This document shows, one piece after another, positions 3,050-46,962 of a DNA stretch of 64,000 bases. The DNA lies in IMG/VR virus record IMGVR_UViG_3300036985_009306, positions 1 to 64,000 of that record, one strand, 5' to 3'. The stretch is from a virus. The stretch's first letter is position 1. Every line of letters begins with the position of its first letter. The notes under the pieces were generated by a model that did not search any database, was not told where the DNA came from, and saw nothing but the letters and a program-made list of their open reading frames with translations. A program made the position numbers and the translations under genes.

Positions 3050-6000
3050 ATGAAAATGATAAAATTTTCTATTATTGTTCCTACATATAATCATCTTGAA
3101 GATTGTCTAAAACCTTGTTTAGAATCTATTGTGGCAGGTACAAATCTTGAAGAAGTTGAGATTATAGTAGTTATGAACGGTTGTGTTGATGGGACAAAAG
3201 AATATTTGTCAACATTTAGACAACCTTTAATTACTCTTGATTTTGACAAACCAATAGGTTACCCAAAAGCTATAAATGCAGGATTAAGAATTGCTAAAGG
3301 TGACTATATAATTTTATTGAATAATGATGTTCAATTTTTGAATTGGGCATATAAAGGTAGTTGGATCGATCAATTAATAGAACCATTTAAGCTCTTTCCT
3401 AATTGTGGTATAACGGGTTGTCTAAAATCATATAATGAACGAGTAGATAGAGAATTTGTGCTATTCTTTTGTGCAATGATTTCCAGACAATGTTTTAATA
3501 ATGTTGGTTATTTAAATGAAATATTTACTCCGGGTTCTGGTGAGGACATCGATTACTGCATTAGGGCAGCAAAAAAAGGATTTGTTTTTGAACAAGTTCC
3601 TTATGGAGAAGTAGGACAAGTTGTAGATAGGCGATTGATAACTTCATTTCCTATCTATCATGAAGCTGAAAAAACTGTGCATGAAATTCCAAATTGGTCT
3701 GAAATATTCCAAAGAAATCTAGATCTTGTTGCTAATCTTCATAGATTTCCTAAGATTTCTATTATCATTCCTACATACAATCATCTTGATGATTATTTAA
3801 AACCTTGTTGTGAGAGTATTATAAAGAATACTAATTTAAAAAATGTAGAGATTATTATTGTTGCAAATGGTTGTGTAGATAAAACTAGAGAGTATGTAGA
3901 GAGTTTAAGTAAACCGTTTAAACTAGTATGGTTTGAACAAGCCCTTGGATATACAAGGGCTATTAATGAGGGATTAAAAGTAGCACAAGGAGAGTATGTA
4001 GTTTTATTAAATAATGATGTTGTCTTGTTAAATCCTACATGGATAGAACTTTTATTAAAACCTTTTTTGATTTGCGATAATGTTGGGATTACAGGTCCTC
4101 TTAAGTTTACATGGCCTTGTGGACCATTGATAAAGACTGCTATTGCATTTTGGTGTTGTATGATTAGAAGATCTATAATTGATGAAATCGGATATCTTGA
4201 TGAAGATTTTTCTCCTGGAATGGGAGAGGATGGTGCTTATTGTATTGAAATGGAAGATATAGGGTATAAAATTGTTCAAGTTCCTGTTGATGATGTTAAG
4301 AAATTTGGAGAAGGACCATCAAATCAAACATTTCCGATATGGCATAAAGGTAATGGAACGTTTGCTGATCAAGAAGATAAAAAGAATGAGATCATAAATA
4401 GAAATAGTAAAATTTTAGAGAACAAATATGCTGATGCATTACAACAAAGTTATAATCATTGTGTTAATGCTTTTAGTGACACATATGCATTGTTTCCTAT
4501 TTTAAGAAAATATGCGAATAGATGTGAACATATAACCGAATTTGGAGTGAGAGATGTGTTTTCTACTTGGGCTTTTGTTGCAGCAAAACCTGTAAAAATG
4601 ATATCTTATGATATTTATACTTCTAATAATATTTATGGAGTTATTAATATTGCAAAAGGATGTGGTGTAGTAGATTATAAATTTATAGAACATAATGTTT
4701 TAACAACTGAGATAGAAGAAACTGATTTGCTTTTTATAGACACTTTGCACACATACGGTCAACTTTCTCAGGAACTGAAATTGCATGCTAATAAAGTAAG
4801 AAAATATATAATGTTTCATGACACTTTTACTTGGAGAGAAAAAGATGAAATTGAAACTACTACTGAGAAAAAAGGATTGTATACTGCAATAAAAGAGTTT
4901 TTACAAGACAATCCACAATGGCAACCAGAATTAGATATTTCTGAATCTCATGGTTTATTTGTAATGAAAAGGATTCCAACATTTTCAATTATAGTTCCTA
5001 CTTGTAATAATAAGAATGTTTTAAAAGAGTGTCTAGATCGCATTTTGTCTTATACAAATTTAATGGATAAAGAAATAATAGTTGCGGCTAATGGTTGTGA
5101 TTCTGATACATTAACTTATCTTTATTCATTAAGGAAGAAAATTTCAATTGTGAATTTTGGAGAAAAAGTAGGTCAAATTAGACCTGTCAATGAAGGTGTT
5201 AGAGTGTCTAAGGGAAAGTATATTGTTCTCATTGATGATGATTGTCTTTTATTGCCTCAAGAAAAAGATTCATGGATTAAAATGCTTTATCAGCCTTTTA
5301 TTGATCAAAATGTTGGAGTTTCAGGACCGATTGTTGCAAGTTATCCTGATTTAGGATATGCAATGCATAGTGGTTGTACTATGTATAAGAGAGAAGTATG
5401 GGAAAAAGTTAATGGTGCAGATCCTATATTTGATTATGGTTATTTATGGGATGCTGACATTAGTTATAGAATAGAAAAAGAAAATTATAAGATAGCACAT
5501 GTTGGATTTGATCATGGGTTTATGGAATTTCCATTGTATCATCCAGAGAGTCCTGCAACTACTGAAAGAAAACAAAGAGATGGTGTATTATTAAAAAGAA
5601 ATAGAGATATTTTGTATGAGAGACATGGTAAGAAAAAAGAAGAGAATGTCAAGATTTCTATTGTTATTCCAACATATAACCACTTAGATGATTGTTTGAG
5701 GCCTTGTGTAGAGAGTATCATTCAACATACTAATTTAGAAAATGTTGAAGTTTTAATTGTTGCTAATGGGTGTAAAGATGGAACAAGAGAGTACATAGAA
5801 AGTTTGGGAAAACCATTCAAATTGATTTGGGAAGATGATGGTATTGGATTTACTAAAGCTACTAATATTGGTATAAAACAAGCAAAAGGTGAATATGTAA
5901 TTTTACTTAATAATGATACTATTTTTTTAGATAAGGGACAATCTAAGAATACTTGGATAGAGATGTTAATCAAGCCATTCAAAGAAGATGACAAAGTTGG

Positions 6001-6847
6001 TATTACTGGACCATTACAACTATATGATAATTATGCAGGTTATGATGTGATGATCTTTTTTTGTGTTATGATAAGAAAAGAAGTATTTGACAAGATAGGT
6101 ATTTTAGATGAGTCATATTCTCCAGGTGGAGGAGAGGATATTGATTTTTGTGTAAGAGCTATGCAAGCAGGATATAAGCAAGTCGTTGTACCTTCTAAAC
6201 ATACAACTTTTACATTTACTAATGAGGGTTATTTTCCAATATATCACATAGGTGAGGGAACATTTTCTGATAAGGAATTTCCAGAATATGGAAAAGAGAT
6301 TATAAAACGTAACGGATTGAAGAATGCAATTCGTTACAATAAACACTTGAAATTGAATCTTGGATCTGGAGGAGTTGAGATGCCAGGTTATTTGAGTGTA
6401 GACATGAAAGATCGTAGAGCACATATAGTGAGTGATGTATTTGATTTGCAGTTACCAGATAATTCTGTAGAAGAGATACTTGCTTCTCATTTGTTAGAAC
6501 ATATATCTGTATATAGAGTAATGGATTTATTTGGTAAGTGGATTAAGATATTGAAGCCAGGTGGGAAGCTCGTGATGGAGATGCCTGACATTTTAGGTGT
6601 GTGTAGAGCACTTGTAGCAGCAACTAAAGAAGAAAGATATGGATGGTTGACTTGTATTTATGGTGCTGTTAATACAACAGACGTTGGAACACGAGAAGAC
6701 ATTACTTCTCCTCATTTGTGGGGATGGTATGATGAGCATTTATGGGACCATTTGAGCAATGCAGGATTTGTCAATATTAAGTTTATGCCTGAACAGATTC
6801 CGCATCCATTTATAAATTTTAGAGTAGAGTGTAATAAACCAATATAG
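3050..6847 (+). CDS. Multidomain glycosyltransferase/methyltransferase (GT2-GT2-MTase-GT2-GT2-MTase)
   Basis: Four GT2 starts (FSIIVPTYNH, ISIIIPTYNH, FSIIVPTCNN, ISIVIPTYNH) with LLNND/LIDDD motifs. Two MTase segments: EFGVR...LLFIDTLH...FHDT and LNLGSG...SHLLEH...LKPGG. Confidence 0.9.
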   Translation: MKMIKFSIIVPTYNHLEDCLKPCLESIVAGTNLEEVEIIVVMNGCVDGTKEYLSTFRQPLITLDFDKPIGYPKAINAGLRIAKGDYIILLNNDVQFLNWAYKGSWIDQLIEPFKLFPNCGITGCLKSYNERVDREFVLFFCAMISRQCFNNVGYLNEIFTPGSGEDIDYCIRAAKKGFVFEQVPYGEVGQVVDRRLITSFPIYHEAEKTVHEIPNWSEIFQRNLDLVANLHRFPKISIIIPTYNHLDDYLKPCCESIIKNTNLKNVEIIIVANGCVDKTREYVESLSKPFKLVWFEQALGYTRAINEGLKVAQGEYVVLLNNDVVLLNPTWIELLLKPFLICDNVGITGPLKFTWPCGPLIKTAIAFWCCMIRRSIIDEIGYLDEDFSPGMGEDGAYCIEMEDIGYKIVQVPVDDVKKFGEGPSNQTFPIWHKGNGTFADQEDKKNEIINRNSKILENKYADALQQSYNHCVNAFSDTYALFPILRKYANRCEHITEFGVRDVFSTWAFVAAKPVKMISYDIYTSNNIYGVINIAKGCGVVDYKFIEHNVLTTEIEETDLLFIDTLHTYGQLSQELKLHANKVRKYIMFHDTFTWREKDEIETTTEKKGLYTAIKEFLQDNPQWQPELDISESHGLFVMKRIPTFSIIVPTCNNKNVLKECLDRILSYTNLMDKEIIVAANGCDSDTLTYLYSLRKKISIVNFGEKVGQIRPVNEGVRVSKGKYIVLIDDDCLLLPQEKDSWIKMLYQPFIDQNVGVSGPIVASYPDLGYAMHSGCTMYKREVWEKVNGADPIFDYGYLWDADISYRIEKENYKIAHVGFDHGFMEFPLYHPESPATTERKQRDGVLLKRNRDILYERHGKKKEENVKISIVIPTYNHLDDCLRPCVESIIQHTNLENVEVLIVANGCKDGTREYIESLGKPFKLIWEDDGIGFTKATNIGIKQAKGEYVILLNNDTIFLDKGQSKNTWIEMLIKPFKEDDKVGITGPLQLYDNYAGYDVMIFFCVMIRKEVFDKIGILDESYSPGGGEDIDFCVRAMQAGYKQVVVPSKHTTFTFTNEGYFPIYHIGEGTFSDKEFPEYGKEIIKRNGLKNAIRYNKHLKLNLGSGGVEMPGYLSVDMKDRRAHIVSDVFDLQLPDNSVEEILASHLLEHISVYRVMDLFGKWIKILKPGGKLVMEMPDILGVCRALVAATKEERYGWLTCIYGAVNTTDVGTREDITSPHLWGWYDEHLWDHLSNAGFVNIKFMPEQIPHPFINFRVECNKPI

Positions 6848-6856
6848 GAGACGTAA

Positions 6857-7699
6857 ATGTTTGATTGTTGTATAATTAATGATGAATTAGATATCTTAGA
6901 ATTACGTTTCGACATTCTATTTCCTTTTGTTGAAAAATTTGTTGTAGTAGAATCAGATAAGACTCATTCTGGTAAATCAAAAGAATTAAATTTTGAGAAA
7001 AATAAAGATCGTTTTAAAAAATTCCAGTCAAAAATAATCTATATGGTGTATAAAGGTCATAATGTCATAAACAGTGCACAAGCATGGGGTAATGAAAACT
7101 TTCAACGTAATTATGTTCTTGAATCTCTTAAGATTTGTAAGCCAACTGATAATTTGTTATTTGTTAGTGATGTTGATGAGATTCCAAAACCAGAGAAATT
7201 GATTGAGGCAAAATGTGTTGCATGTAAATCAAACATGCCTGTTGCTTTTAATATGTACAATTGTATGTATTATTTTAATTTTGCGGCAGATAGTGTCTTT
7301 AGAGGACCATATTTATATAATCCATATAATGCTGAAAGTGTTCATAAATCATTTGGTAACTCTCGATATGATCCAACAACTTTTCGTTGGCATATGTGTG
7401 CTGTAGAGTTTGAAAAAGATTTTCCTATAGTTAATGATGCAGGATGGCATTTTTCAACATTAGGTGGTATAGATGCAATTAGACACAAATTAGAGTCATA
7501 TGCTCATATAGAATTTAATACACCAGAGATAAGGGCAGAAGAGCATTTGTTGAAGTGTATAGCAGAGGGAATGCCATATAATGAAGATAAGTACAAATTT
7601 AGTAGTGTGAAATCTAGATTTACTAAAAGAGAGATATCATTTTTACCAGAATATGTTCAGTATAATTTAGATAAATATAAAAATTATATTTTGTTTTAA
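6857..7699 (+). CDS. GT17-like (beta-1,4-GlcNAc transferase family) glycosyltransferase
   Basis: MFDCCIINDELDILELRF...FVVVESDKTHSG...SDVDEIP...GWHFS...KLESYAH, typical of GT17. Confidence 0.85.
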   Translation: MFDCCIINDELDILELRFDILFPFVEKFVVVESDKTHSGKSKELNFEKNKDRFKKFQSKIIYMVYKGHNVINSAQAWGNENFQRNYVLESLKICKPTDNLLFVSDVDEIPKPEKLIEAKCVACKSNMPVAFNMYNCMYYFNFAADSVFRGPYLYNPYNAESVHKSFGNSRYDPTTFRWHMCAVEFEKDFPIVNDAGWHFSTLGGIDAIRHKLESYAHIEFNTPEIRAEEHLLKCIAEGMPYNEDKYKFSSVKSRFTKREISFLPEYVQYNLDKYKNYILF

Positions 7700-7712
7700 G
7701 ATAGAAACATCT

Positions 7713-9005
7713 ATGTTCTCTTTAATAGTGAGTGTTAAAGATAAAAGAACGTTCAATTCGGTATTATTGCCTTCATTGAATTATCTTCATGAGTATTTAC
7801 GCAATCATCAACTTCCTCACATACAATTAATACCTATTTATGATGGTAATAAAAGTATAACAAAAAATTATAATAAAGGTTTAGAACAAAGTTTGTGGAA
7901 AATTAAATTTTTTATACATGAAGATGTAGATATTAAAGATACTCAAATTCCTCTATTTATAAAAGTCTATTCTTTGTTTAATCTGTTTCCAGATACTGGA
8001 TTGATTGGTTTAGTAGGTACAACAGAGAACTCTCCTGGGTTTTGGTGGAATTGTAGTAGAAACTCTATTATGGGTCATGTATTATGTTGTAATGAATATT
8101 GGAAATGGGATATTGATGAAATTTATAGAGATGTGAATGTTGTTGATGGTATGTTTATGGCAACTAATACAGATATAAAGTTCTCTGAAGACATAGATGG
8201 TTTTCATTTATATGATAGCGATTATTCAAATACAATTAGAAAAGCTGGACTTAAAGTAAAAGTTTTGACACATTTAGTAGATCATAGAGCAACATATAAA
8301 GACTTGTCAAAAGTAAATATAGATTATTTTAATAAGAAGTGGAATCTTTTTTCAAATCTTGTAGAATTAAAGAAACTTGAAGCTCAGCATAAAGAAGCTT
8401 ATGATGAAGTAATAACTCGGAATTTATATCGTATTAGAGAAGAAGATCTCGAGAATAAAGATGTTTTGGATCTTGGAGCAAATAATGGTTGTTTTACTTT
8501 ATTAGCGAAATACTATAAAGCTAAAAAAATTATTGCTGTTGAATCTAATATTGCAACTTTTGAAGTCTTGTCAAAAAACACAAAAGATTTAGATATTGTT
8601 CTTATAAATAAAGCTGCTTCTTCAAAAAGTGGTGAACGAGTAACATTGGGTAGACAATCAGATTATAGCACTATCGATGGTCGTTGTTATGTTGTTCCAA
8701 ATTCTGTAGGTGAAATAGAAACTATATCTTTAAATGATTTAGTTAAAATGTTTGATGGAAATATTGTTTTAAAAATTGATGTGGAAGGATCTGAATTTGA
8801 TATAATTGAAGGAGCATCAATTGAAACTTTAAAGAGATGTTCTACTATACTAATGGAAATTCATCAAGATATGGGAGCTGTTTTGGGCAAAACAAATATT
8901 ATTGAAGGATTAAAAACACATTTAAAAAATATTGGGTTTACAGAAGTATGGAAAAATGAAGCTTATAATGTTAATCTTGTTCGTTTTGACTTAATAGAAA
9001 ATTAA
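7713..9005 (+). CDS. GT-A (GT2-like) glycosyltransferase fused to an FkbM-family methyltransferase
   Basis: N-terminal FIHEDV, VVDGMFMAT, GFHLYDSD; C-terminal VLDLGANNG...AVES...LKIDVEGSE. Confidence 0.85.
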   Translation: MFSLIVSVKDKRTFNSVLLPSLNYLHEYLRNHQLPHIQLIPIYDGNKSITKNYNKGLEQSLWKIKFFIHEDVDIKDTQIPLFIKVYSLFNLFPDTGLIGLVGTTENSPGFWWNCSRNSIMGHVLCCNEYWKWDIDEIYRDVNVVDGMFMATNTDIKFSEDIDGFHLYDSDYSNTIRKAGLKVKVLTHLVDHRATYKDLSKVNIDYFNKKWNLFSNLVELKKLEAQHKEAYDEVITRNLYRIREEDLENKDVLDLGANNGCFTLLAKYYKAKKIIAVESNIATFEVLSKNTKDLDIVLINKAASSKSGERVTLGRQSDYSTIDGRCYVVPNSVGEIETISLNDLVKMFDGNIVLKIDVEGSEFDIIEGASIETLKRCSTILMEIHQDMGAVLGKTNIIEGLKTHLKNIGFTEVWKNEAYNVNLVRFDLIEN

Positions 9006-9008
9006 AAC

Positions 9009-11036
9009 ATGAAAATCGGATCTGTAGAAATACAATTATTTGACAAAAAAGATTCTTATAATGATGCTGCAAATAATGAACGAATGATAGAATTGCCGTT
9101 AGCTGAATGGTTTTTGAAAAAGCATAATTATTTAGAATCTATGATAGAAGTAGGTGCTGTAACACCGTATTATTTTGGGAAAGATCATCTTGTCTTTGAT
9201 CCATTTGATAAATATGAAAAATGCGTAAGGATTAAAGCTGAAGAAATTGATTATGCAAATAAAATACTTTTATCAATATCAACTGTTGAACACATATGCA
9301 AAAAATATAATAGTGGACCTATCGATTGGGAAGATGATTTAGCTTTAAAAGTTTTGTTGAAAATGATGAAGGCTAAAGAATATTTGATCACATTTCCTCG
9401 ACGTTTTAATAAATCTATAGATGATTTTGTAGAGCAAGAAAAAGAACACATAATAAAGCTTAAAAGAATAGAATCTCATGTTTGGCAAAAAGTAGAGTCT
9501 CTAGTTGATGTAGGTTTTAATCATCCGTTTTCTTGTGGTAATGGACTTTATATTGTGACTAATTGTAAAGAATTACTTGAAAGTGATTTTATGTTTGAAA
9601 GTATTAAAAGTCAACATGAATCAGTCTATAATGAAATAATTGTACAGAATCAATATAGAGTTTCAAAAGAAGATTTAGAAGAAAAGAATATTCTTGACAT
9701 TGGCGCCAATAATGGCATATTCACATTATTAGCAAAATCTTATAATGCTAACAAAATTATTGCTGTTGAATCAAATATTGATGTATTTAATTTGTTAAAA
9801 TCTAATGTCAAAGAATCTTCAGATATTTCTATCATTAATAAAGCAGTTACAGGAAAAAGTGGTAATAAAGTAAGTGTCATAAAACGTCCAGAATTTTGTA
9901 ATATAGATGGACGTTGTTATATTATGCCAGATGAGAAAGGCGACATAGAAACAATTTCATTAGATGATTTAATAAAAAAATTTGATGACAAACAAATTGT
10001 GTTGAAATTAGATGTAGAGGGTTCCGAATATGACATAATTTATGGGGCATCTTTGGAATTTTTAAAGAAGTGTTCAACAATATTAATAGAGATGCATGAT
10101 GATATGGGAGCAGTTTCAGGTAAAATAGGTCTGATTGAAAAGTTAAGAAATAATTTAAAAGAGATTGGTTTTAAAGAAACTTGGATTTATGACTATGTAA
10201 AAAATGTAAAGATTGCAAGATATGATTTTATGGTAGAAGTAACTGTAGTGATTTCAGAGTATTTGAGACCTGAACTTTTGTTACGACAGATAGAGTGTTT
10301 TCAGAAACAAACACTTAAGCCTAAGGAGATAATAGTTTGGCAGACTCAAGTAGAGGGACAAGAAGAAGCTTATAAATTAGAACATTCTTATTCTAATGTC
10401 TATATTGTTAAGACTAATCATGATTTTAAATTACCTGCAAGATTTGTCATACCTTTGTTAGCAAAAACTCCTTATGTGTGTCTTGTAGATGATGATGTAT
10501 TTCCGGGACCAAAATGGTTAGAAGAATGTAATAGAATTTTTATGAAAGACAATGTGGTGGTGTCCCCTTATGGTATAAAATATAAAAAAGAAACACAACA
10601 CGATATGAATTCTGATCAATATGGAGATAATGGAAAACATAATGAGTTACCTGTCAAAGTAGATATTGGGGGACATGGTTGGTTTTGTCCGACTAGATTC
10701 TTTTTGTGTTTTGGAATGGAATCTTGTTTGGATGAGAGAAGAGGAGACGATATTCATTTCGCTTATTGTCTTAAAAAGTATTTAAACATTGATATTATGG
10801 TTTCTCCTTATCCAGAAAATAATAAAGACATTTGGGGCAATTTGGATTCAGAAGCAGGAATGGGAGTAAAATCTCTTCATGCCAGAAAATTTGAAGATGA
10901 GAAGATATGGAAAAATTTAGACAGAAAAGGTTGGGAGTCGTCAGAATTGCAATATTTGAAAAATAATTTAAATGATTTTTGTTGTAAGAGAGAAGAAATT
11001 GTTAAAAAATATATTAAATCAGGTTGGTTATTGTAA
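9009..11036 (+). CDS. MTase-like + FkbM methyltransferase + GT-A glycosyltransferase fusion
   Basis: IEVGAV/SISTVEHI; ILDIGANNG...LKLDVEGSE; VTVVISEY...VCLVDDDVFPG. Confidence 0.8.
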   Translation: MKIGSVEIQLFDKKDSYNDAANNERMIELPLAEWFLKKHNYLESMIEVGAVTPYYFGKDHLVFDPFDKYEKCVRIKAEEIDYANKILLSISTVEHICKKYNSGPIDWEDDLALKVLLKMMKAKEYLITFPRRFNKSIDDFVEQEKEHIIKLKRIESHVWQKVESLVDVGFNHPFSCGNGLYIVTNCKELLESDFMFESIKSQHESVYNEIIVQNQYRVSKEDLEEKNILDIGANNGIFTLLAKSYNANKIIAVESNIDVFNLLKSNVKESSDISIINKAVTGKSGNKVSVIKRPEFCNIDGRCYIMPDEKGDIETISLDDLIKKFDDKQIVLKLDVEGSEYDIIYGASLEFLKKCSTILIEMHDDMGAVSGKIGLIEKLRNNLKEIGFKETWIYDYVKNVKIARYDFMVEVTVVISEYLRPELLLRQIECFQKQTLKPKEIIVWQTQVEGQEEAYKLEHSYSNVYIVKTNHDFKLPARFVIPLLAKTPYVCLVDDDVFPGPKWLEECNRIFMKDNVVVSPYGIKYKKETQHDMNSDQYGDNGKHNELPVKVDIGGHGWFCPTRFFLCFGMESCLDERRGDDIHFAYCLKKYLNIDIMVSPYPENNKDIWGNLDSEAGMGVKSLHARKFEDEKIWKNLDRKGWESSELQYLKNNLNDFCCKREEIVKKYIKSGWLL

Positions 11037-11046
11037 AGGATTAATT

Positions 11047-12744: not shown

Positions 12745-12814
12745 AATAGATAGACCGAAATAAGGCACTATTCCTTCAAATAACAACAAACAATTTTAAA
12801 AGAAGGAGAAGTGT

Positions 12815-13636: not shown

Positions 13637-13657
13637 GGAGAATGGATAAAAACAAGG

Positions 13658-14733: not shown

Positions 14734-14819
14734 CTAGAGCCATTCTCGAGTTCATCTAGTTAATTCTTTTTGTTCATCAATAGTTTCCCCATATAAATTT
14801 TTGTTGTAATTTCTAGTTA

Positions 14820-14838
14820 TTCTACTGTTTTTATACAG
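14820..14838 (+). promoter_or_regulatory. Degenerate copy of the recurring intergenic motif (putative promoter)
   Basis: ttctactgtttttatacag, 15/19 identical to the 15961 copy; ~50 nt before ATG 14891. Confidence 0.35.
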
Positions 14839-14890
14839 TTGAGTTATTTACAAAGGCAAAATTCTCAAAACAATAAAATAGGATCAAATT

Positions 14891-15439: not shown

Positions 15440-15446
15440 GAAAAAG

Positions 15447-36568: not shown

Positions 36569-36583
36569 AAGGAAAAAAAGTAA

Positions 36584-37210: not shown

Positions 37211-37213
37211 CAT

Positions 37214-38488: not shown

Positions 38489-38493
38489 TTTAA

Positions 38494-39489: not shown

Positions 39490-39509
39490 TTATAACAGAA
39501 GGAATAAAA

Positions 39510-40256: not shown

Positions 40257-40291
40257 ACTTTTTAAATTTTCTTGTCATGAGAGAAAAGCAA

Positions 40292-41179
40292 ATGATAACA
40301 TTTAGTAATTTAGGAGCTTTTGGAAGATTAGGTAATCAATTGTTTCAATATGCGATATTATTATCAGTTGGTGCAGAAAATGATTATGAAGTAAAAATAC
40401 CGAAACTTGATGATAAAGAATGGCATGGACAAAAGTGTTTATTAAAAAATTTTAATATCAAAGCAAAGACATTAGATTGTAATGACGTAATAAAATATTT
40501 TTATAATGAATTAGAACGTTCAAAAGGTCTATATGATCCAACAGTAGGTCTATATGATCCAACAGTTTTTAATGTCCCTGACAATTCAGATTTATTTGGA
40601 TATTTTGGTGATTATCGATATTTAAAAAAACATGAAGATTTGATAATAAATGAGATGTCCCTTAAAGAGAATATTTTAGAAAAAAATAGAAAAAGGTTTT
40701 TTGAAATAAAACAAAAATATGCTGATTGTTTAATAATTTCACTTCATATAAGACGTGGTGATACTGCTTTAGATATGTATAGTAAAAAAGAAACTCTTGA
40801 AATACTTGACATTAATTCTCCTTGGCAAATATATTTCTCTAATGCAAGGAAGATGTTTGACAATAAAAAATGTAAATTTTTAGTTTTTACAGGAGGATCA
40901 CATTCTAACAATAATGAGCTTGATTATATATGGTGCAAGAGAAATTTGAAAGGTGATGAATTTATTTATTGTGATGATAATATTGATAATCCGATAGATG
41001 ATTTTGCTATGATGTACCTTTGTGACGCACATATTTTATCTGCATCATCAACATTAAGTTGGTGGGTTGGGTTTTTAGACAAAAAAAATGATAAGATTAC
41101 TATTGCACCTGAAAAATATTGGTTTTTAACAAAAGCAATGCATGAAGGATTTTATCCTGATAATTTTATTTTAGTATAA
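40292..41179 (+). CDS. GT11 alpha-1,2-fucosyltransferase-like
   Basis: GRLGNQLFQYA, SLHIRRGD, STLSWW; start reassigned to ATG 40292. Confidence 0.88.
   Translation: MITFSNLGAFGRLGNQLFQYAILLSVGAENDYEVKIPKLDDKEWHGQKCLLKNFNIKAKTLDCNDVIKYFYNELERSKGLYDPTVGLYDPTVFNVPDNSDLFGYFGDYRYLKKHEDLIINEMSLKENILEKNRKRFFEIKQKYADCLIISLHIRRGDTALDMYSKKETLEILDINSPWQIYFSNARKMFDNKKCKFLVFTGGSHSNNNELDYIWCKRNLKGDEFIYCDDNIDNPIDDFAMMYLCDAHILSASSTLSWWVGFLDKKNDKITIAPEKYWFLTKAMHEGFYPDNFILV
40525..40566 (+). repeat. perfect 21-bp tandem duplication (GLYDPTV x2)
   Basis: aggtctatatgatccaacagt occurs twice in tandem. Confidence 0.9.
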
Positions 41180-41182
41180 ATT

Positions 41183-41854
41183 ATGAAATTAGAAGACATA
41201 AGAATACATTGTATAGGAGATAGTCATGTTTCAGTTTTTACAGGAAAAGATACAATAAGCAAAGGTTGGCCTTGTCCACAAGATTCAATACAATATTTTC
41301 ATACTTATTGGCTTGGACCAGTATTAGCATATAATCTTTATTCTGTTGGACATCAATCAAGGTTGAATTTGTTTAATGTTTTAGAAAGTATTTCTAAAAG
41401 TGATTATGTGATGCTTTGTGCAGGAGAAATTGATTGTAGGATGCATTTGATTAGACAAAAAGAATTACAAAACAAATCATTAGAAGAAATTGTACAAGAA
41501 TGTGTATGTAGATATTTTCAAGTGATTTTAGAAATAAAAAATATGGGATTTAAAGTGATAATATGGGGAGTACCAGGTACAGCAAATATTGATTGTTTTG
41601 AATTAAAAGATAAAAATACTTTTCCTCATTATGGCACGTATAAGGAAAGAAATCAGGCTACAAAAATTTTTAATAACAAAATAGAATATTTATGTAAATT
41701 AAATGATGTTTTATTTTTATCTATTTTTGATGATCTAATTGATGACAATGGAAAAACTAAAATAACAGAATATTATATGGATGAGTTTCATGTAAGTCAG
41801 AAAGTAATGCCTTTGATAATTAGTAAACTTAAAAATGTTTTAAACAAAGAATGA
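41183..41854 (+). CDS. SGNH/GDSL hydrolase-fold protein (possible acyl transfer or removal on glycan)
   Basis: IGDSH, GEIDCR, DEFH motifs. Confidence 0.75.
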   Translation: MKLEDIRIHCIGDSHVSVFTGKDTISKGWPCPQDSIQYFHTYWLGPVLAYNLYSVGHQSRLNLFNVLESISKSDYVMLCAGEIDCRMHLIRQKELQNKSLEEIVQECVCRYFQVILEIKNMGFKVIIWGVPGTANIDCFELKDKNTFPHYGTYKERNQATKIFNNKIEYLCKLNDVLFLSIFDDLIDDNGKTKITEYYMDEFHVSQKVMPLIISKLKNVLNKE

Positions 41855-42564
41855 GATGTTTTATGAATAAAGAACAATATGAAAATCAATTTATACTTTT
41901 TAAAGAGAAATCTAAATTGGATGAAAGATTTGTTGTTGAAGAAACAAATAAATACATGATATTGAATGAAGACACTTACAAGTGTTCATATGATCAACAT
42001 TACATATATCATACTGCTTGGGCTGCACGTAGAATTTGTGAAAATAAACCCAAAAAACATGTAGATATTTCATCTTCTATTTATTTTTCAACTATTGTTT
42101 CTGCTTTTGTACCTGTAGATTTTTTTGATTATCGTCCTGTTGAACTTGATTTAGAAAACTACAATTCTGGAAAAGCTGATTTGACATGTTTACCTCATTC
42201 TGATAATAGTATACAGTCTTTATCTTGTATGCATGTTTTAGAGCATATTGGTTTAGGAAGATATGGAGATGCAATAGATCCTTTAGGAGATATTGTTGCT
42301 GCAAATGAATTAAAAAGAGTATTGGCTCCTGGAGGAATTCTTTATATGGTTTTACCAGTAGCATCAATAAATAAGATATGTTTTAATGCTCATAGAATTT
42401 ATTCTTTTAAAAGCGTACTTTCTCTTTTTAATGGATTGGTTTTAAAAAGTAATACTTTACTTTCATTATTTTCTAATAAAAGTGCTTTTATAAAAAATGC
42501 TTCAGAAAATGACTATAACCAACAAACTTATGGTTGTGGTTGTTTTGAGTTTCAAAAAATATAG
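41851..42564 (+). CDS. DUF268-like SAM methyltransferase
   Basis: HYIYHTAWA, HVDISS, SLSCMHVLEHIGLGRYGD.IDP.GD, FNAHRIY. Confidence 0.8.
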   Translation: MRCFMNKEQYENQFILFKEKSKLDERFVVEETNKYMILNEDTYKCSYDQHYIYHTAWAARRICENKPKKHVDISSSIYFSTIVSAFVPVDFFDYRPVELDLENYNSGKADLTCLPHSDNSIQSLSCMHVLEHIGLGRYGDAIDPLGDIVAANELKRVLAPGGILYMVLPVASINKICFNAHRIYSFKSVLSLFNGLVLKSNTLLSLFSNKSAFIKNASENDYNQQTYGCGCFEFQKI

Positions 42565-42575
42565 AAAAATTTGTT

Positions 42576-43085
42576 ATGCCTGCAACTATAGAAACTTATT
42601 GTATAGCATATGAATTTTCAACTAAATCCACTTTTCTTGAATTGGGTGGATTTTTAGGTGATGGAATATTGAAAGCACTTAATGTAGGTTTTAAAAATGT
42701 GATTTCTGTAGAATTATCAGAAGATTTATGTATGTTTTTAAAAAAAAGGTTTGTAAGTGATAAAAAAGTTATGATTGTACAAGGGGATGTTGAAAATGTA
42801 TTACCCGACATAATTAAAGACTTGAATGAACCATGTGCTATTATGTTAGATGCGCATTATAGTGGAAATGGTACAGTACGAGGTATTCATGATGACCCCA
42901 TAATTGAAGAACTTAGCATAATTGGTAGTAGTAAATTTAAAAATCATGTTTTAATGATAGATGATATGAGACTTCTTAATGATGAACAAATAAGAAAAAA
43001 AGTGCTTGAAATAAATCAAAATTATACTTTTATGTATGCTGAAGGTCACGTGAAAGATGATGTTCTCATCTGTTACATGAAATAA
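42576..43085 (+). CDS. small SAM methyltransferase-like protein
   Basis: FLELGGFLGDG, LDAHYSG, IDD.R. Confidence 0.75.
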   Translation: MPATIETYCIAYEFSTKSTFLELGGFLGDGILKALNVGFKNVISVELSEDLCMFLKKRFVSDKKVMIVQGDVENVLPDIIKDLNEPCAIMLDAHYSGNGTVRGIHDDPIIEELSIIGSSKFKNHVLMIDDMRLLNDEQIRKKVLEINQNYTFMYAEGHVKDDVLICYMK

Positions 43086-43089
43086 TAAA

Positions 43090-46000
43090 ATGAATATATC
43101 TATTGTAATCCCAGTTCATAATCAATGTCAATTGTTGCAAAATTGCATAAACTCTATTTTTGAAAAAACAAATACTGAGTTTCAAATTATTATTGTAAAT
43201 GATGGTTCTGATGAACAAACAACGAAATTTTGTCATCAACTTTATGAAACAAAGAAAATCAAGAAACTAGTTCATAATCCTGTTGCAAAAGGATTTAGTG
43301 AAAGTTGCAATCAAGGAATTGTTGCAAGTCAAGATTCTGATTATATTTGTCTTTTAAATTCTGACACAAAAATAGTCACAAAAAATTGGTTAGAAAAAGT
43401 GATTTTATGTGGAGAAAGTGATGAAAAAATAGGATGTCTTGGAGTATTATCTAATTGTGCAACTTGGCAATCTATAGGTAAAAACTTTGTCAAAGAAAGT
43501 GAAATACAAAAATATGGTGATTTGATCGTTTCTCTTTCAGAAAATCAATATCCCAGAACTAATTTGATTAATGGATTTTGTTTTTTTATTAAAACTAATG
43601 TTCAAAAACAAGTTGGACTTTTAGATGTTCAAGTTTTCCCTCATTATGGAAGTGAAGATGATTTTGCTTTAAGAATTAGACAAAAAGGATATGAGCTGGC
43701 AATTGTTGATAATGTCTATGTCTATCACTATTCTAATCAGTCTTATAAAGAAAAAAGAGAAAAAATAATGCATTATTCTTTGCCCAATTTATTAAAGAAA
43801 TGGGGAAACAAAAGAATAGTTCAAGATACAAATGTGTCAAATAATTCATTAAATTATTTAAAAAAGAAAATCAATGAATATTTTTCTTCTATGTCTTGTG
43901 ACATTATTATTGTTGTTCATAATGCTTTATCATATCTTAAAAAATGTATAGAAAGTATTCAAAAATACACTGATTATGAGCATAATATCTTTATTGTAGA
44001 TAATAACTCAAATGAAGAAACTAAATCTTATTTAAAAAGTCTTAAACATGTTCAAATTATTTCAAATAAGAAAAACTATGGTTTTGGTTATTCTAACAAT
44101 CAAGCAATAAGAAAATCAAAATCTAAATATGTATGTTTTTTAAACAGTGATACGATAGTTACGAAGAACTGGTTGACAAATTTGATTGAGTGTTTAGAAA
44201 AAAATAATGCAGGAATTGTAGGTCCAATTTCAAATGAAGTATCATCTGAACTACAAAAGGTAGATTATCTTTATGATGATAATGATGAAAATATTCAAGA
44301 TTTTGCAGAAAAAAGATACTTACAATATAAAGACAAAGTTGCAGAGTATAACAGACTTATTGGCTTTTGCATGGTCATGAAGAGAGAAGTCTTACAGAAG
44401 ACAGGATGTTTTGATGATAGATATAGATTTAATTTTGAAGATGATGATTTATGTTTAAGAACTGTAGAACAGGGATATAGACTTTATTGTTCATTTGGTG
44501 TATTTATATATCATTATGCAGGACAATCATTTAAAGAAAAATCAATAAACGTAGACTATAATAATATGCTTGAAACTAGTAGAGACTTATACAAAAAGAA
44601 ATGGTATGAAACTCAAAAAATAAAGTTTATTAATGAAAAAAAAGATAATATTTCAATAATCTATCTTTTAGAGTCAAATTCACCAAGTGGTGGAGTTAAA
44701 GTTGTTTTTGAACATGCAAATAGACTTAAAGATAGAGGTTATAATGTAAAGATATATTGTAGAAGAAATGAAACAGGAACAAATTGGTTTGATTTATATA
44801 CACCTATTGTCTATTTTTCTGAACCTCAAGAAGTTCCTCATTGTGACATTGCAATAGGTACCTATTTTACTACACTTCCTATTCTCCAAAAGATTAATAG
44901 TTCTATTAAAATTCATCTTTGTCAAGGATATGAAGCTTCTCTTTATGACAAAGTCAAAGAAAAAATGTTAATTTCTACTATACAAGATAATTATAAAAGT
45001 ATTAAAGAAAAAATAGTAGTCTCTAAATGGTTAAAAGAAATAATTGATAAAGAATACAAAATAGATTCTTATTATGTACCAAATGGTCTTGATCAATATG
45101 TGTTTTCATTTTCAAAACATCAAAGAAATAGAACACCGAGAATTCTTATTGTAGGAAATTATGGGCTTCAAATTAAAGGAGTAGCAATAGCTTTAAAAGC
45201 TGCAGAAGAATATTTAAAAGCTCATTCTCGTAATGAACCAATAATGCATCGTCAAGTTTATACAGCAATAAAAATTGTTAATAAAAAAGTTCAAGGAACG
45301 ATTGTAAGACTTGCATCTGAAAAAACTCAATTTGATGATAAATGTGAATTTCATGATATGTCAAAGATGACACAAGATGAGATTGCTAAAGTTTATGAAT
45401 CTTGTGATGTAACTCTTTGTGCCTCTTATAAAGTTGAAGGTTTTAGTTTACCACCTTTAGAATCTATGGCTAGTGGAACTCCTGTAATAACAACAGACTG
45501 TGGGGGTATAAATGATTATGCAATAAATAATGAAAATTCAATTATTGTACCTCCTGGTGATGTAAAAGCATTACAACAAGGTCTTGAGATGGTATTATCT
45601 AATAACGAGTTGTATTCTCGTTTGGTAGAGAATGGTTTAAAAACAGCCAATGAATATCCATGGTATAAACAAATAGATATACTTGAGGGATTTCTGCATA
45701 GGCTCTATTATAAACAAATTGCTCTGAGTAGAGAACAGCTGTCTGTATGTATGATTGTAAAGAATGAGCAATTGTGTTTAGCAAATTGTTTGGAATCTAT
45801 TAAGGGTCTTGCAAACGAAATAATAATTGTAGATACTGGTTCTACGGATGACACTATAAGAATAGCTAAAAGTTTTGGAGCAAAAATTTTTCATTTTGAG
45901 TGGATTGATGATTTCTCTGCTGCTAGAAATTTTGCTCTAGAAAAAGTGACTCAGTCTTGGACTTTTATTCTGGATGCTGATGAAGTAATAAGTCCAGTAG

Positions 46001-46962
46001 ATATATCAAAAATAAGAAATTTATTGAAACAAAATAAAGCTTATAGTTTTGTTTCTAGAAATTATGTTAATTCTACAAATATTGAAGATGTAGTTTGTTG
46101 TAAAGGTGAATACAAAAATGAAGAGAAAGATTTTGTTGGATGGTGTAGATCAGGTAAAGTTAGATTATTTCCTACGACAAAAGGTGCAAAGTTTAATGGG
46201 CAAATACATGAGCTAGTAGAAGATTCATTAGAAGAATTAAATATTAAAATTGAGATGTGTGATATTCCAGTTCATCATTATGGTTATCTTAAACAAAATA
46301 AAGAAAAAGGTGAGATATATTTAAAGTTGGGGAAGAATAAAGCAAAAGTTGGCGATAAGAAAGCACTTTATGAATTAGCATCGCAATATATGGCACTTAA
46401 TAATTATGATGAATCACTTGTTGTTTGGAGAAGATTGTTGTCAATAGAACCTAAAAATTATGATTATTTGTCACATATAGGAACTGTATTTAACTTGTTA
46501 AATGATTATGATCAAGCAGAGAAATATTTTCTTAAGTCTATTTCTATATGTCAATCTGAATATGCTTTTAAGCATTTAGCGATTTGTTATTCAAAATTAG
46601 ATAGATATAATGATGCATATTTAACGTTTAAAAAGATTGTTTATAAGACTGATGATTTGAAAACAATGGCAGATTTTGCATATTGTTGTAATACATTAAA
46701 GAAATATGACGAAGCGATTTCTATTTTAGAAAAATGTTTGAAAATTAATAGAGAAATAACTGTGTCTTGGGGGCTGTTAGAATCAGCTTATAATGAGAAG
46801 GGAATAGAGTTTGCAAGTGCAAATAACCTTAATCAAGCATTGGTGATGTTCAAAAAAGCTTTAGATTTAGATTGTAGATTTGAAGCAGCTCAAACAAATC
46901 TAAATGTGGTCAATAAACTTTTAAGTACTGGGTCATTTTCTAAAAGTTTTATCAAAGTTTAA
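43090..46962 (+). CDS. Multidomain glycosyltransferase GT2-GT2-GT4-GT2-TPR
   Basis: ISIVIPVHN; CDIIIVVHN; VEGFSLPPLESMASG; LSVCMIVKNE...VDTGSTD...DFSAARNFAL...LDADE; C-terminal TPR helices. Confidence 0.9.
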   Translation: MNISIVIPVHNQCQLLQNCINSIFEKTNTEFQIIIVNDGSDEQTTKFCHQLYETKKIKKLVHNPVAKGFSESCNQGIVASQDSDYICLLNSDTKIVTKNWLEKVILCGESDEKIGCLGVLSNCATWQSIGKNFVKESEIQKYGDLIVSLSENQYPRTNLINGFCFFIKTNVQKQVGLLDVQVFPHYGSEDDFALRIRQKGYELAIVDNVYVYHYSNQSYKEKREKIMHYSLPNLLKKWGNKRIVQDTNVSNNSLNYLKKKINEYFSSMSCDIIIVVHNALSYLKKCIESIQKYTDYEHNIFIVDNNSNEETKSYLKSLKHVQIISNKKNYGFGYSNNQAIRKSKSKYVCFLNSDTIVTKNWLTNLIECLEKNNAGIVGPISNEVSSELQKVDYLYDDNDENIQDFAEKRYLQYKDKVAEYNRLIGFCMVMKREVLQKTGCFDDRYRFNFEDDDLCLRTVEQGYRLYCSFGVFIYHYAGQSFKEKSINVDYNNMLETSRDLYKKKWYETQKIKFINEKKDNISIIYLLESNSPSGGVKVVFEHANRLKDRGYNVKIYCRRNETGTNWFDLYTPIVYFSEPQEVPHCDIAIGTYFTTLPILQKINSSIKIHLCQGYEASLYDKVKEKMLISTIQDNYKSIKEKIVVSKWLKEIIDKEYKIDSYYVPNGLDQYVFSFSKHQRNRTPRILIVGNYGLQIKGVAIALKAAEEYLKAHSRNEPIMHRQVYTAIKIVNKKVQGTIVRLASEKTQFDDKCEFHDMSKMTQDEIAKVYESCDVTLCASYKVEGFSLPPLESMASGTPVITTDCGGINDYAINNENSIIVPPGDVKALQQGLEMVLSNNELYSRLVENGLKTANEYPWYKQIDILEGFLHRLYYKQIALSREQLSVCMIVKNEQLCLANCLESIKGLANEIIIVDTGSTDDTIRIAKSFGAKIFHFEWIDDFSAARNFALEKVTQSWTFILDADEVISPVDISKIRNLLKQNKAYSFVSRNYVNSTNIEDVVCCKGEYKNEEKDFVGWCRSGKVRLFPTTKGAKFNGQIHELVEDSLEELNIKIEMCDIPVHHYGYLKQNKEKGEIYLKLGKNKAKVGDKKALYELASQYMALNNYDESLVVWRRLLSIEPKNYDYLSHIGTVFNLLNDYDQAEKYFLKSISICQSEYAFKHLAICYSKLDRYNDAYLTFKKIVYKTDDLKTMADFAYCCNTLKKYDEAISILEKCLKINREITVSWGLLESAYNEKGIEFASANNLNQALVMFKKALDLDCRFEAAQTNLNVVNKLLSTGSFSKSFIKV

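Follow-up and report, generated by a model that had tools for sequence, protein, structure and literature searches.

About 12% of the 192-kb genome of an uncultured phage, estimated to be 97% complete, is devoted to two glycan clusters, and we consider it rather probable that the soluble enzymes of both work in the cytoplasm, where they would build methylated oligosaccharides directly on virion proteins of the phage itself as particles are assembled. The unusual aspect in this phage is the scale of the system. Both clusters lie in the window analysed here (the first 64,000 nucleotides of IMG/VR record IMGVR_UViG_3300036985_009306), where open reading frames and domain searches confirmed cluster 1 at 3050-12744 and cluster 2 at 34092-46962. 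Large-scale self-glycosylation of the virion had been proposed in the initial annotation. The proposal gained from a link between cluster 1 and a type of fibre, from a module resembling GmaR and SunS and from the missing prerequisites of rival explanations; it lost through the absence of an inner block of cluster 2 from relatives, an argument from gene orientation that proved void, and a HAD domain that was not found in the clusters. The relevant features of the window are:

2-769, plus strand: C-terminal part of a proline-free Gly-Tyr-Ser (Gly-X-Ser) collagen-like fibre, truncated by the contig start
3050-6847, plus strand: 1265-aa enzyme, GT2-GT2-(weak CmcI-like methyltransferase)-GT2-GT2 (D4)-class I methyltransferase (Pfam domains)
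6857-7699, plus strand: GT17-family glycosyltransferase (PF04724, 112 bits)
7713-9005, plus strand: GT-A domain (Glyco_tranf_2_5) fused to an FkbM-family methyltransferase (TIGR01444, 69 bits, cut-off 37.7)
9009-11036, plus strand: N-terminal domain, FkbM methyltransferase and GT2 (domain searches)
10972-12744, plus strand: GT2 (aa 63-404) fused to a GT9-like C-terminal half (aa ~420-590; profile searches)
12815-13636, plus strand: 273-aa helical protein directly after cluster 1, with a 27-aa SG[YFL]SG tract (nt 13295-13375)
21705-21767, plus strand: short Gly-X-Ser tract, the third in the genome, C-terminal in ORF 21321-21776 (six-frame scan)
29892-32657, plus strand: 921-aa conserved protein with two CHB_HEX_C/Fn3_assoc domains, a backbone gene adjoining the insertion site
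32901-33975, plus strand: two small genes, for an Ig-like 242-aa protein and a 114-aa protein (PHROG Ig/Hoc-like matches)
34092-35150, plus strand: GT4 glycosyltransferase of the conserved cluster-2 core, with homologues (59-62% identical) at the same site in the related jumbo phages G001 and G002
35147-36568, plus strand: class I methyltransferase fused to a probable GT-D-fold domain (Pfam, structure matches)
36584-43085, plus strand: inner block of cluster 2, in this phage only; GC drops to 25-26%
43090-46962, plus strand: 1290-aa enzyme, GT2-GT2-GT4-GT2 (GmaR/SunS-like)-TPR (domain and PDB profile searches)
46968-47348, plus strand: 126-aa protein, found among the relatives examined only alongside the cluster-2 core
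48202-59087, plus strand: conserved downstream backbone with a volactin-like actin, a 387-aa protein, a fibre-like 1300-aa protein and the tail sheath

Approximately 16 glycosyltransferase (GT) domains had been read from motifs, and Pfam, PDB profile searches and ESM Atlas structures bear this number out: 14 domains across both clusters exceed the Pfam cut-offs and two more are probable. Nine of the firm domains are PF00535 GT2 domains (four in 3050-6847, one each in 9009-11036 and 10972-12744, three in 43090-46962), and all GT2 matches of the 192-kb genome are confined to the two clusters. The remaining firm domains are GT17 (6857-7699), Glyco_tranf_2_5 (7713-9005), GT11 (40253-41179) and two GT4 domains (34092-35150 and aa 680-851 of the 43090-46962 enzyme); the genome has ten GT-bearing genes. 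The probable domains are the GT9-like half of 10972-12744 (Pfam 21.5 bits against a cut-off of 22; WaaC at 6e-6 in the PDB profile search) and the GT-D-like part of 35147-36568 (Pfam E 0.006; ESM Atlas structure matches at TM 0.57-0.66), and GT-D-like genes also occur in the clusters of G001 and G002. Methyltransferase domains had been put at about nine, of which six were found firmly (the C-terminus of the 3050 ORF, two FkbM domains, 35147, 39510 and a DUF268 domain in 41851) and two weakly (the CmcI-like stretch in the 3050 ORF, and 42576). Five of these, four firm ones and the weak CmcI-like one, are fused to GTs in the 3050, 7713, 9009 and 35147 proteins, an arrangement that suits sugar methylation, as in A064R of PBCV-1 (PMC9614988). 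None of the cluster enzymes has a transmembrane segment; all are soluble. No polytopic protein of the Wzx, Wzy, ABC or PGT type was found in the phage genome.

The case for virion proteins as acceptors begins with the fibre gene upstream of cluster 1. In translation, 2-769 has a repeat region of GYS/GIS/GTS triplets (~148 aa) and, after it, a globular end; it matches PHROG tail-fibre families and is the candidate acceptor for cluster 1. Translating the 192-kb genome in six frames yields only three GxS tracts, and two of them flank cluster 1, the second being that of the 12815-13636 protein, which may also serve as an acceptor. In a survey of IMG/VR, a GT2 was present in 37 of 119 GYS-repeat loci as against 3 of 115 control loci with generic collagen repeats (Fisher p 1.3e-9), orthologues of the 10972 GT2 in 32/119 against 0/115 (p 5e-11), and orthologues of 3050-D4 (39-54% identity) in 22/119 against 0/115, counts that rest on neighbourhood and are inflated by kinship, with only 6-11 deep lineages behind them (clustering of the orthologues gives 11 groups at 70% identity and 6 groups at 60%). 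A small GT9C-like gene was found in 29 GYS loci. Together these genes make up a three-part cassette, consisting of a GT2-methyltransferase fusion as its first gene, a GT2 and a GT9 C-terminal half, which in most cassette-bearing loci stands directly downstream of the GYS fibre gene on the same strand. The D4-methyltransferase end of the 3050 enzyme corresponds to the first part and 10972-12744 to the second and third; by sequence comparison, the central enzymes of cluster 1 have their orthologues in this cassette, which stands behind GYS collagen-like fibre genes in many unrelated viral contigs.

Other enzymes of cluster 1 also recur beside such fibres. The related phage G003 pairs homologues of the 3050 (61% identical), 7713 and 10972 enzymes with two giant SGYSG fibres, and in another locus a GT17 domain is fused into a large enzyme adjoining a 1671-aa GYS fibre (L049). 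The N-terminal 200 aa of 9009-11036 gave no family in the domain search. There are also loci that depart from the pattern: G008 (62.5 kb, 77% complete) encodes the large GT together with a 10972-like protein yet gave no GYS match, none was seen in the short contigs L024-L026, and G001, G002 and G005 carry ordinary Gly-X-Y fibres, not GxS fibres, beside different GT2-methyltransferase genes.

Interleaving with fibre, neck and tail genes had been reported for both clusters, and its fibre and tail part stands, in the form of the 2-769 fibre, the Ig-like protein (32901), a further fibre (51629) and the sheath (56358). The shared orientation of glycan and structural genes, which had been advanced as an argument, is uninformative, because almost the whole genome is encoded on one strand. 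The conserved backbone at 48202-59087 places cluster 2 within the tail/fibre module; upstream, the 29892-32657 protein is conserved in 8/8 relatives, and its N-terminus is homologous to that of a 1947-aa GYS fibre of G003 (L020). G001 and G002 keep a smaller version of the cluster-2 core in syntenic position, inside the tail/fibre backbone, and this speaks for the virion reading; there the sites carry different accessory GT and methyltransferase genes. Cluster 2 is absent from 5/8 related loci and is hence dispensable cargo. Homologues of the 32901-33975 genes occur only in G001 and G002 (L030/L031) and are thus confined, among the relatives examined, to carriers of the core.

G001 and G002 each have a homologue of the 43090 enzyme (59-61% identical) in the corresponding position, and no close cellular homologue was found for this enzyme or for the other large ones. 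Its aa 882-1073 match GmaR (8e-26) and SunS (8e-14) in the PDB, and the enzyme matches the SunS family TIGR04195 at 1.6e-18 with 66.8 bits, below the cut-off of 350. GmaR, the flagellin O-GlcNAc transferase of Listeria (PDB 22ao; PMC9638930), and SunS, the sublancin S-glycosyltransferase (PDB 7msp), likewise consist of a GT2 followed by TPRs, whereas here the module is the terminus of a four-GT polypeptide and far below the SunS equivalog cut-off. We regard aa 882-1272 as a candidate protein-glycosylating (initiating) module.

The inner block between these core genes has no homologues at the corresponding site in G001 or G002. As annotated initially, it encodes an ATP-grasp ligase and a radical SAM enzyme, the latter of the radical SAM/SPASM type; the DegT-like protein is present in a shortened form of 208 aa that keeps the Lys motif, and the SGNH protein is only probable. 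A methyltransferase, GT11, the DUF268 methyltransferase and a small methyltransferase-like protein complete the block, which probably tailors an unusual sugar, and could make something other than a virion glycan.

Domain content, enzyme solubility, synteny and the statistical association of the cassette with GYS fibres are what the analysis establishes; glycosylation of the fibres, the order of the steps and the nature of the sugars are what we infer. Cluster 1 would be an expanded form of the widespread viral cassette, which would O-glycosylate Y-position serines of proline-free Gly-X-Ser collagen-like fibres; its targets would be the 2-769 fibre and perhaps the short tract in 12815-13636, and the extra GT2, GT17, GT-A and FkbM domains would lengthen the chain and cap it with methyl groups. 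Cluster 2 would be a second system built around a GT4 and the four-GT enzyme, in which the GmaR/SunS-like GT2-TPR end would put the first sugar on protein and the fused GT domains would extend the chain, with the co-inherited 32901, 33631 and 46968 proteins and the neighbouring fibre proteins as candidate acceptors. Donors would be host nucleotide sugars and products of phage enzymes. The idea that donors might be supplied from elsewhere in the genome gained substance outside the window, where a homologue of dTDP-glucose 4,6-dehydratase (6bi4 match at 7e-57) and a reductase-like, RmlD-like SDR are encoded at 103 kb and 185 kb. These point to a 6-deoxyhexose such as rhamnose, for which the RmlT-like, TIGR01556 and CmcI-like matches are weak hints; RmlA and RmlC are absent from the phage genome. 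At the least, the evidence suggests that part of the machinery sugar-coats serine-rich collagen-like fibres.

GTs in the host-recognition and fibre regions of phages have usually been read in another way, as remodelling host-envelope glycans (LPS O-chain, teichoic acid, S-layer or capsule), which might block superinfection or aid release, the fibre region being a mere hotspot for accessory genes. Pelagimyophages, large myoviruses with many GTs amid the tail-fibre genes of a hypervariable region, as here, are a case in point; their main family is GT8, as against GT2 with GT4, GT17 and GT11 here, and host O-chain modification was put forward by the authors as a proposal only (PMC7029224). A huge-phage survey likewise classes GTs as envelope-associated (10.64898/2026.10.24.761521), many NCBIfam near-matches of our enzymes are exopolysaccharide (EPS), teichuronic-acid and O-antigen enzymes, 3050-D4 weakly resembles the wall-teichoic-acid rhamnosyltransferase RmlT, and both clusters form part of the variable cargo of a hotspot. 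We nevertheless judge this explanation unlikely: the cluster enzymes lack transmembrane segments, the genome offers no candidate initiating phosphoglycosyltransferase, flippase, polymerase or ABC exporter, the core cassette follows one fibre type and not fibres generally (the 32/119 against 0/115 above), the GT2-TPR module is similar to enzymes that glycosylate proteins and peptides, and the large enzymes are without close cellular homologues. More improbable still is that the GTs hypermodify the phage's DNA, as happens in T-even phages and through sugar gene clusters dependent on a methyltransferase and TET. Multi-GT clusters of that kind do exist in phages and can adjoin structural genes (Pyle et al., 10.1101/2023.12.21.572611; PMC13326640), and one cassette homologue has a weak TAGT-like match below cut-off. 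Such systems, however, require a methyltransferase and a TET-like dioxygenase, or a hydroxymethylase, for the acceptor base, and no enzyme making a 5hm-pyrimidine was found in the phage genome: neither a thymidylate-synthase-like hydroxymethylase nor a C5 DNA methyltransferase was detected in the 97%-complete sequence, nor was a Tet_JBP dioxygenase, in a weak search whose control gave no match either. Known systems add mono- to trisaccharides, for which ~16 GT domains with TPR modules seem far too many, and the link to GYS fibres is left unexplained.

A division of targets, with cluster 1 acting on fibres and cluster 2 or its inner block on a host protein (flagellin or pilin, for instance), on some non-structural protein of the phage, or on a peptide or small molecule, is about as doubtful as envelope remodelling. 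Flagellin is the target of GmaR and a peptide that of SunS, SPASM radical SAM enzymes, like ATP-grasp ligases, typically act as peptide maturases, so that the pair suggests a RiPP-like product, and the inner block is missing in relatives and lower in GC. Yet the cluster-2 core is fixed within the tail/fibre backbone of three phages and travels with small virion-module proteins, the wealth of GT and methyltransferase genes in the inner block (GT11 and three methyltransferases) suits sugar tailoring, and an unsystematic look noticed no gene resembling a precursor peptide.

Glycosylation of the phage's own virion, the reading we prefer, has several precedents. Some glycosylating mycobacteriophages also encode an O-methyltransferase. 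Che8, Corndog and Myrna likewise have soluble phage GTs in the structural module that glycosylate their own virion proteins (Freeman et al. 2023, Cell Host Microbe 31:1216, as summarised in PMC12619734 and PMC10568470), but these are a few single-domain GTs directed at the C-termini of capsid and tail-tube subunits. In the present phage ~16 GT domains are found, many of them fused in 1265- and 1290-aa enzymes, and the best-supported candidate acceptor is a collagen-like Gly-X-Ser fibre. For such an acceptor the parallel is BclA, whose sugars are attached to the Y-position Thr of (GPT)n repeats. This collagen-like Gly-X-Y filament of the Bacillus anthracis exosporium bears O-linked rhamnose oligosaccharides capped by anthrose, a methylated 4-amino-4,6-dideoxy sugar (PMC6222408, PMC10050317), and may be set beside the Gly-X-Ser fibre, GT and methyltransferase genes, 4,6-dehydratase and DegT-like aminotransferase seen here; BclA is bacterial and proline-rich with Thr instead of Ser, and the parallel is functional only. 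The capsid glycans of the chlorovirus PBCV-1 and the fibril glycans of Mimivirus are also products of virus-encoded, cytoplasmic, host-independent systems, with multi-domain GT-GT-methyltransferase enzymes (A064R of PBCV-1, whose glycosylation system also includes A061L and A111/114R, comprises two Rha-transferases and a 2-O-methyltransferase), methyl-capped 6-deoxyhexoses and a nucleotide-sugar 4,6-dehydratase of their own, but they belong to eukaryotic giant viruses, in which the glycans are N-linked to the major capsid protein or to fibrils (PMC9614988). For PBCV-1, with its 331 kb, the number of putative GT genes is eight (PMC9614988), compared with the ten GT-bearing genes in 192 kb of the present phage.

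The initial annotation proposed that this phage may glycosylate its own virion. That reading is supported in part: strongly as regards a link of cluster 1 (3050-12744) with collagen-like fibres, and by analogy as regards cluster 2 (34092-46962). The window covers the initial 64 kb of the parent contig (192,143 bp, GC ~30%, 97% complete by CheckV, no end repeats), which starts within a repeat-rich fibre gene that probably accounts for the assembly break at this point. Translation of this ORF (2-769) reveals ~148 residues of GYS, GIS, GTS and GVS triplets followed by a globular end, a proline-free type of collagen repeat in which Ser fills every Y position. When the 192 kb were scanned in all six frames, only two further Gly-X-Ser (GxS) tracts were recovered: 27 aa at 13295-13375, inside the protein directly after cluster 1, and a brief stretch at 21705-21767. 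Cluster 1, which begins at 3050, shares its strand with the fibre, which stops at 769, and the second GYS tract lies beyond the cluster. This placement of virus-encoded glycosyltransferases (GTs) within or beside structural genes is as in virion glycosylation of the mycobacteriophage and chlorovirus type.

Enzymes of the two clusters and neighbouring genes (single numbers are ORF starts in the window; MT, methyltransferase)
2-769, + strand: collagen-like fibre with PHROG tail-fibre hits
3050, cluster 1: four GT2 domains followed by a class I MT at the C-terminus, 1265 aa (Pfam)
Cluster 1: GT17 (Pfam)
Cluster 1: GT-A + FkbM fusion (Pfam)
9009-11036, cluster 1: FkbM + GT2 fusion (Pfam)
10972-12744, cluster 1: GT2 + GT9-like fusion (Pfam, GT9 part borderline)
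20262: endolysin
29892: conserved 921-aa CHB_HEX_C/Fn3 protein
32901: Ig/Hoc-like protein
Cluster 2: GT4 (Pfam)
Cluster 2: MT fused to a probable GT-D domain
Cluster 2: DegT-like protein, 208 aa
Cluster 2: ATP-grasp ligase
Cluster 2: radical SAM/SPASM enzyme
Cluster 2: MT
Cluster 2: GT11
Cluster 2: probable SGNH protein
Cluster 2: DUF268 MT
Cluster 2: small MT-like protein
43090, cluster 2: 1290-aa GT2-GT2-GT4-GT2-TPR protein
48202-49266: volactin-like actin (PF25216, 245 bits), between cluster 2 and the tail genes
51629: fibre-like 1300-aa protein
56358: tail sheath

Together the clusters occupy 22.6 kb, ~12% of the genome, and contain all nine of its PF00535 hits. The ~16 GT domains counted earlier by motif reading agree almost exactly with Pfam (14 above curated cut-offs and 2 probable) and lie in ten GT-bearing genes within 192 kb; the estimate of ~9 MT domains came down to 6 firm and 2 weak. 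The ATP-grasp and radical SAM/SPASM enzymes were recovered as named, DegT appears only in a shortened form and SGNH only as a probable assignment, and no HAD domain was found in the C-terminus of the ATP-grasp ORF. Fibre and tail genes do lie between and beside the clusters, but the co-orientation originally cited is uninformative, since almost all genes of the contig are on the + strand. Capsid, portal and terminase genes were not located, and the 100-140 kb region is devoted to replication and recombination. PDB sequence searches were uninformative for 50391-51554, 29892-32657 and the full 10972 ORF, and a promoter and terminator scan of 1-20000 gave no useful difference from shuffled sequence.

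The GT9-like part of the 10972 ORF, borderline by Pfam, matches the heptosyltransferase WaaC at 6e-6 with a four-sequence profile, and comprises the C-terminal half of a GT-B fold only. Its assignment as an autotransporter heptosyltransferase of the TibC/Aah type was not supported (no TIGR04414 hit at E 0.1; TibC at E 0.24 by profile). The GT-D-like domain scores E 0.006 in Pfam, and ESM Atlas models match GT-D clusters with TM 0.57-0.66. The DegT-like ORF has its Lys-bearing motif intact but is missing ~65 residues from its interior as well as the C-terminal domain. A stretch of 65 nt (10972-11036) is shared by ORFs 9009-11036 and 10972-12744, and in a related 416-kb phage (G003) the 10972 homologue has an FkbM-like N-terminus in place of this arrangement, indicating that domain fusions are reshuffled between relatives.

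The association of such enzymes with GxS fibres was examined across IMG/VR. A scan with a degenerate GYSGxSGYSGxSGYSG DNA pattern gave at least 119 stretches, and a control scan for ten generic Gly-X-Y triplets likewise gave at least 119, of which 115 new loci were used; the 119 GYS loci cover 0.93 Mb and the control loci 1.03 Mb. The HMM used to detect GT2 domains was trained on the nine found in the window.

GT genes at GYS and control loci, among the matches listed (3050-D4, fourth GT2 domain of the 3050 enzyme)
Any GT2: 37/119 GYS loci vs 3/115 generic collagen loci, Fisher p 1.3e-9
Orthologue of the 10972 GT2 (35-46% identity): 32/119 vs 0/115, Fisher p 5e-11
Orthologue of 3050-D4 (39-54% identity): 22/119 vs 0/115
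Both orthologues: 21/119 vs 0/115
Small gene for the GT9 C-terminal half: 29/119, tallied for the GYS set alone

Most cassette loci share the order fibre, GT2-MT (~425 aa), GT2 (~325 aa) and GT9 C-half (~150 aa), all on the same strand and mostly separated by gaps of 0-400 bp. Pfam confirmed the GT2+MT fusion at these loci and matched the fibres strongly to Collagen. All three parts of the cassette have orthologues in the window, at 35-54% identity: 3050-D4 with its MT, residues 63-404 of 10972, and residues ~420-590 of 10972. Here the cassette is fused and expanded, its first part terminating the 3050 enzyme and the other two forming the 10972 ORF. The parts sit inside larger enzymes and do not directly abut, unlike those of the minimal viral cassette. 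On a 153-kb contig, a GT2-GT2-MT-MT-GT17 enzyme lies beside a 1671-aa GYS fibre. Clustering of the cassette orthologues gives 29 groups at 90% identity, 11 at 70% and 6 at 60%, and the association thus represents several deep lineages rather than 32 independent events. In our literature search, no paper connected phage fibres of the collagen-like Gly-X-Ser type with GT cassettes.

Among the relatives, G003 encodes a protein 61% identical to the 3050 enzyme, counterparts of the GT-A + FkbM fusion (7713) and of 10972, and two giant SGYSG-repeat fibres (1947 and 1679 aa) at contig ends, one of which has its N-terminal domain in common with the window's 921-aa backbone protein. In a 62.5-kb, 77% complete relative (G008), the large enzyme and a 10972-like gene occur with no GYS match, and the contig begins immediately after a truncated fibre end; short contigs carrying the large enzyme had no fibre within reach. 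As GYS repeats tend to break assemblies, such missing fibres are hard to interpret. An apparent perfect co-occurrence in five genomes was dropped, because the fibre matches in three of them (G001, G002 and G005) are ordinary Gly-X-Y collagen and not GxS; these three pair other GT2+MT genes with their Gly-X-Y fibres. SGYSG fibres span contig edges in the window (1-769) and in G003 (L020:3-5843 and L021:10988-16027). Contigs of this phage group start or end within them, the fibre gene of the window is cut short, and SGYSG fibres are probably under-represented in assemblies. In G001 and G003, each collagen-like or GYS fibre gene is followed by one for an RCC1-like beta-propeller protein (WGxNxxGQLG, ~400 aa), which may be a fibre tip or partner.

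RCC1-like repeat proteins following fibre genes (IMG/VR loci)
L016:2679-3890
L016:6630-7865
L017:1-1188
L021:9670-10887

The relatives were found through an alignment of homologues of the actin-like protein (hundreds, many on very large viral contigs), and the set comprises eight IMG/VR loci on contigs of 47-424 kb; related-locus searches with the sheath alone or 12815-13636 alone gave no match. Homologues of this volactin-like actin number at least 422 at E<=1e-10, many on 100-470 kb viral contigs and some binned as 'Nanoarchaeia', and the actin gene is syntenic in 8/8 relatives. All eight keep a backbone of 26105, 27112, 29892 ... 47358, actin, 50391, fibre and sheath. Within it, a cluster-2 core (32901-like, 33631-like, GT4, large GT-TPR enzyme and 46968-like genes) occupies the corresponding site in G001 (424 kb), G002 and the latter's near-identical twin, with differing accessory genes in these phages (GT-D-like, CmcI-like MTs, a GT32-like gene and a kinase-like gene), and is missing in the five others. 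Cluster 2 is therefore variable cargo at a fixed hotspot of the tail/fibre module, and its content diversifies like that of surface-glycan loci. The inner block, 36584-43085, is unique to this phage among the relatives compared and coincides with the lowest GC of the window (24.7-26.4% over 38001-42000 vs ~29-31% around it), which suggests a recent foreign insertion. The kinase-like ORF of G002 (L030:11738-12319; Pkinase E 7e-6, below cut-off) sits in the cluster-2 equivalent, between split halves of the large GT enzyme; it is reminiscent of kinase/MT chain terminators such as WbdD.

Across 185,579 species genomes, no cellular protein came close to the large enzyme of cluster 2; the top matches were partial, at 31-39%. 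The last GT2 domain of this enzyme (residues 882-1073) and the following TPR repeats (TPR_1, TPR_2 and TPR_12 at 1087-1272) match GmaR best (8e-26), followed by SunS (8e-14) and a related glycocin S-glycosyltransferase (2.5e-12); at 66.8 bits against a cut-off of 350 for the SunS equivalog TIGR04195, the module is a relative of that family and not a member. GmaR, the Listeria flagellin O-GlcNAc transferase, and SunS are both GT2-TPR enzymes that attach the initial sugar to their protein or peptide acceptor. By analogy, we infer that the 43090 module may initiate protein glycosylation, with the three upstream fused GT domains extending the chain.

As the initial annotation stated, the window has no genes for nucleotide-sugar synthesis, and its suggestion that donors could come from elsewhere in the genome is borne out by a dehydratase homologue and a reductase-like protein encoded outside the window.

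Sugar-related genes outside the window (contig coordinates)
103181-104083: full-length dTDP-glucose 4,6-dehydratase (RmlB) homologue (PDB 6bi4, 7e-57)
180686-181699 (L015:687-1700): second radical SAM/SPASM enzyme
185313-186371: distant RmlD-like SDR (4wpg, 1e-10)
187253-188197 (L015:7254-8198): additional class I MT with a weak NanM-like sugar O-MT hit

RmlA and RmlC are absent from the genome, leaving the dTDP-L-rhamnose pathway (RmlA-D) incomplete; the dehydratase and reductase point weakly to a 6-deoxyhexose, as do weak rhamnosyltransferase-like (TIGR01556, RmlT) and rhamnosyl-O-methyltransferase-like (CmcI) hits. In several relatives the dehydratase homologue lies inside the GT region. 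The radical SAM/SPASM enzyme and the MT are close to the RmlD-like SDR, and the genes at 180686-188197 may form a small third sugar-related group.

Phage fibre-region GT genes are usually taken to act against host surfaces or against DNA nucleases. Those of large marine myoviruses were read as modifiers of the host O-chain (PMC7029224). A lipid-linked surface polysaccharide made by these enzymes could use host components, but the membrane machinery of such a pathway is missing: a hydropathy scan found no TM-like segment in the cluster enzymes, and genome-wide there is no candidate polytopic phosphoglycosyltransferase, flippase/ABC exporter, polymerase or ligase. Glycosylation of hypermodified DNA is likewise disfavoured, since known phage DNA-glycan pathways need acceptor-base enzymes such as a thymidylate-synthase-like hydroxymethylase, a Tet_JBP dioxygenase or a C5 DNA methyltransferase (10.1101/2023.12.21.572611), and PF00303, PF12851 and PF00145 gave no hit in this 97%-complete genome, the negative for PF12851 being weak as its control search also gave no hits.

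Under virion glycosylation, soluble cytoplasmic enzymes of the core cassette would O-glycosylate the Y-position Ser of the fibre late in infection, the extra GT2, GT17 and GT-A domains would lengthen the chain, and methyl groups would cap it. A second system might start on another virion protein through the GmaR-like GT2-TPR module, with the inner block (aminotransferase-like, ATP-grasp, radical SAM, MTs and GT11) possibly supplying it with a tailored sugar. The sugars could stabilise the proline-free helix, much as sugars on Y-position Thr do in the cuticle collagen of Riftia, which is poor in proline. At a little short of an even chance, we propose a 'glyco-collagen', a proline-free Gly-X-Ser triple helix in which each Y-position Ser bears a methyl-capped, 6-deoxyhexose-containing oligosaccharide made by a dedicated, widespread viral cassette. 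Enlargement of the cassette in this phage, together with addition of the GmaR-like system, would have led to the ~16 GT domains. The virion would have a strain-variable glycan coat, comparable to an O-antigen, that would stabilise the fibres and shape host recognition or shielding.

In function, the fibre is most closely paralleled by BclA of Bacillus anthracis, whose sugars are O-linked to Thr of Gly-Pro-Thr repeats. BclA is a collagen-like filament bearing rhamnose oligosaccharides with a methylated anthrose cap (PMC6222408, PMC10050317). Giant viruses have been demonstrated to glycosylate their virions with their own GTs, and in PBCV-1 A064R an MT is fused to GT domains as in the enzymes described here (PMC9614988). 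PBCV-1 has eight putative GT genes in 331 kb against the ten of this phage in 192 kb; what stands out here is the scale, the presence of two separate systems, and the multi-transferase enzymes of 1265 and 1290 aa. To our knowledge, virion glycosylation by phage-encoded enzymes has been shown experimentally in mycobacteriophages alone. There, phage-encoded GTs glycosylate the C-termini of capsid and tail-tube proteins (Freeman 2023, summarised in PMC12619734).

If the proposal is correct, many environmental phages sugar-coat collagen-like fibres with their own enzymes, some spending a tenth of the genome on fibre glycosylation with a GT gene count that rivals or exceeds that of PBCV-1. GT-rich 'host recognition' islands would then need different annotation, and the cassette would represent a new class of protein O-glycosyltransferase with a simple repeat acceptor. 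The GYSGxSGYSG repeat is also found on contigs labelled as giant-virus MAGs (L038, L051, L055, L076, L079, L100 and L113), and fibres of this kind may extend beyond phages.
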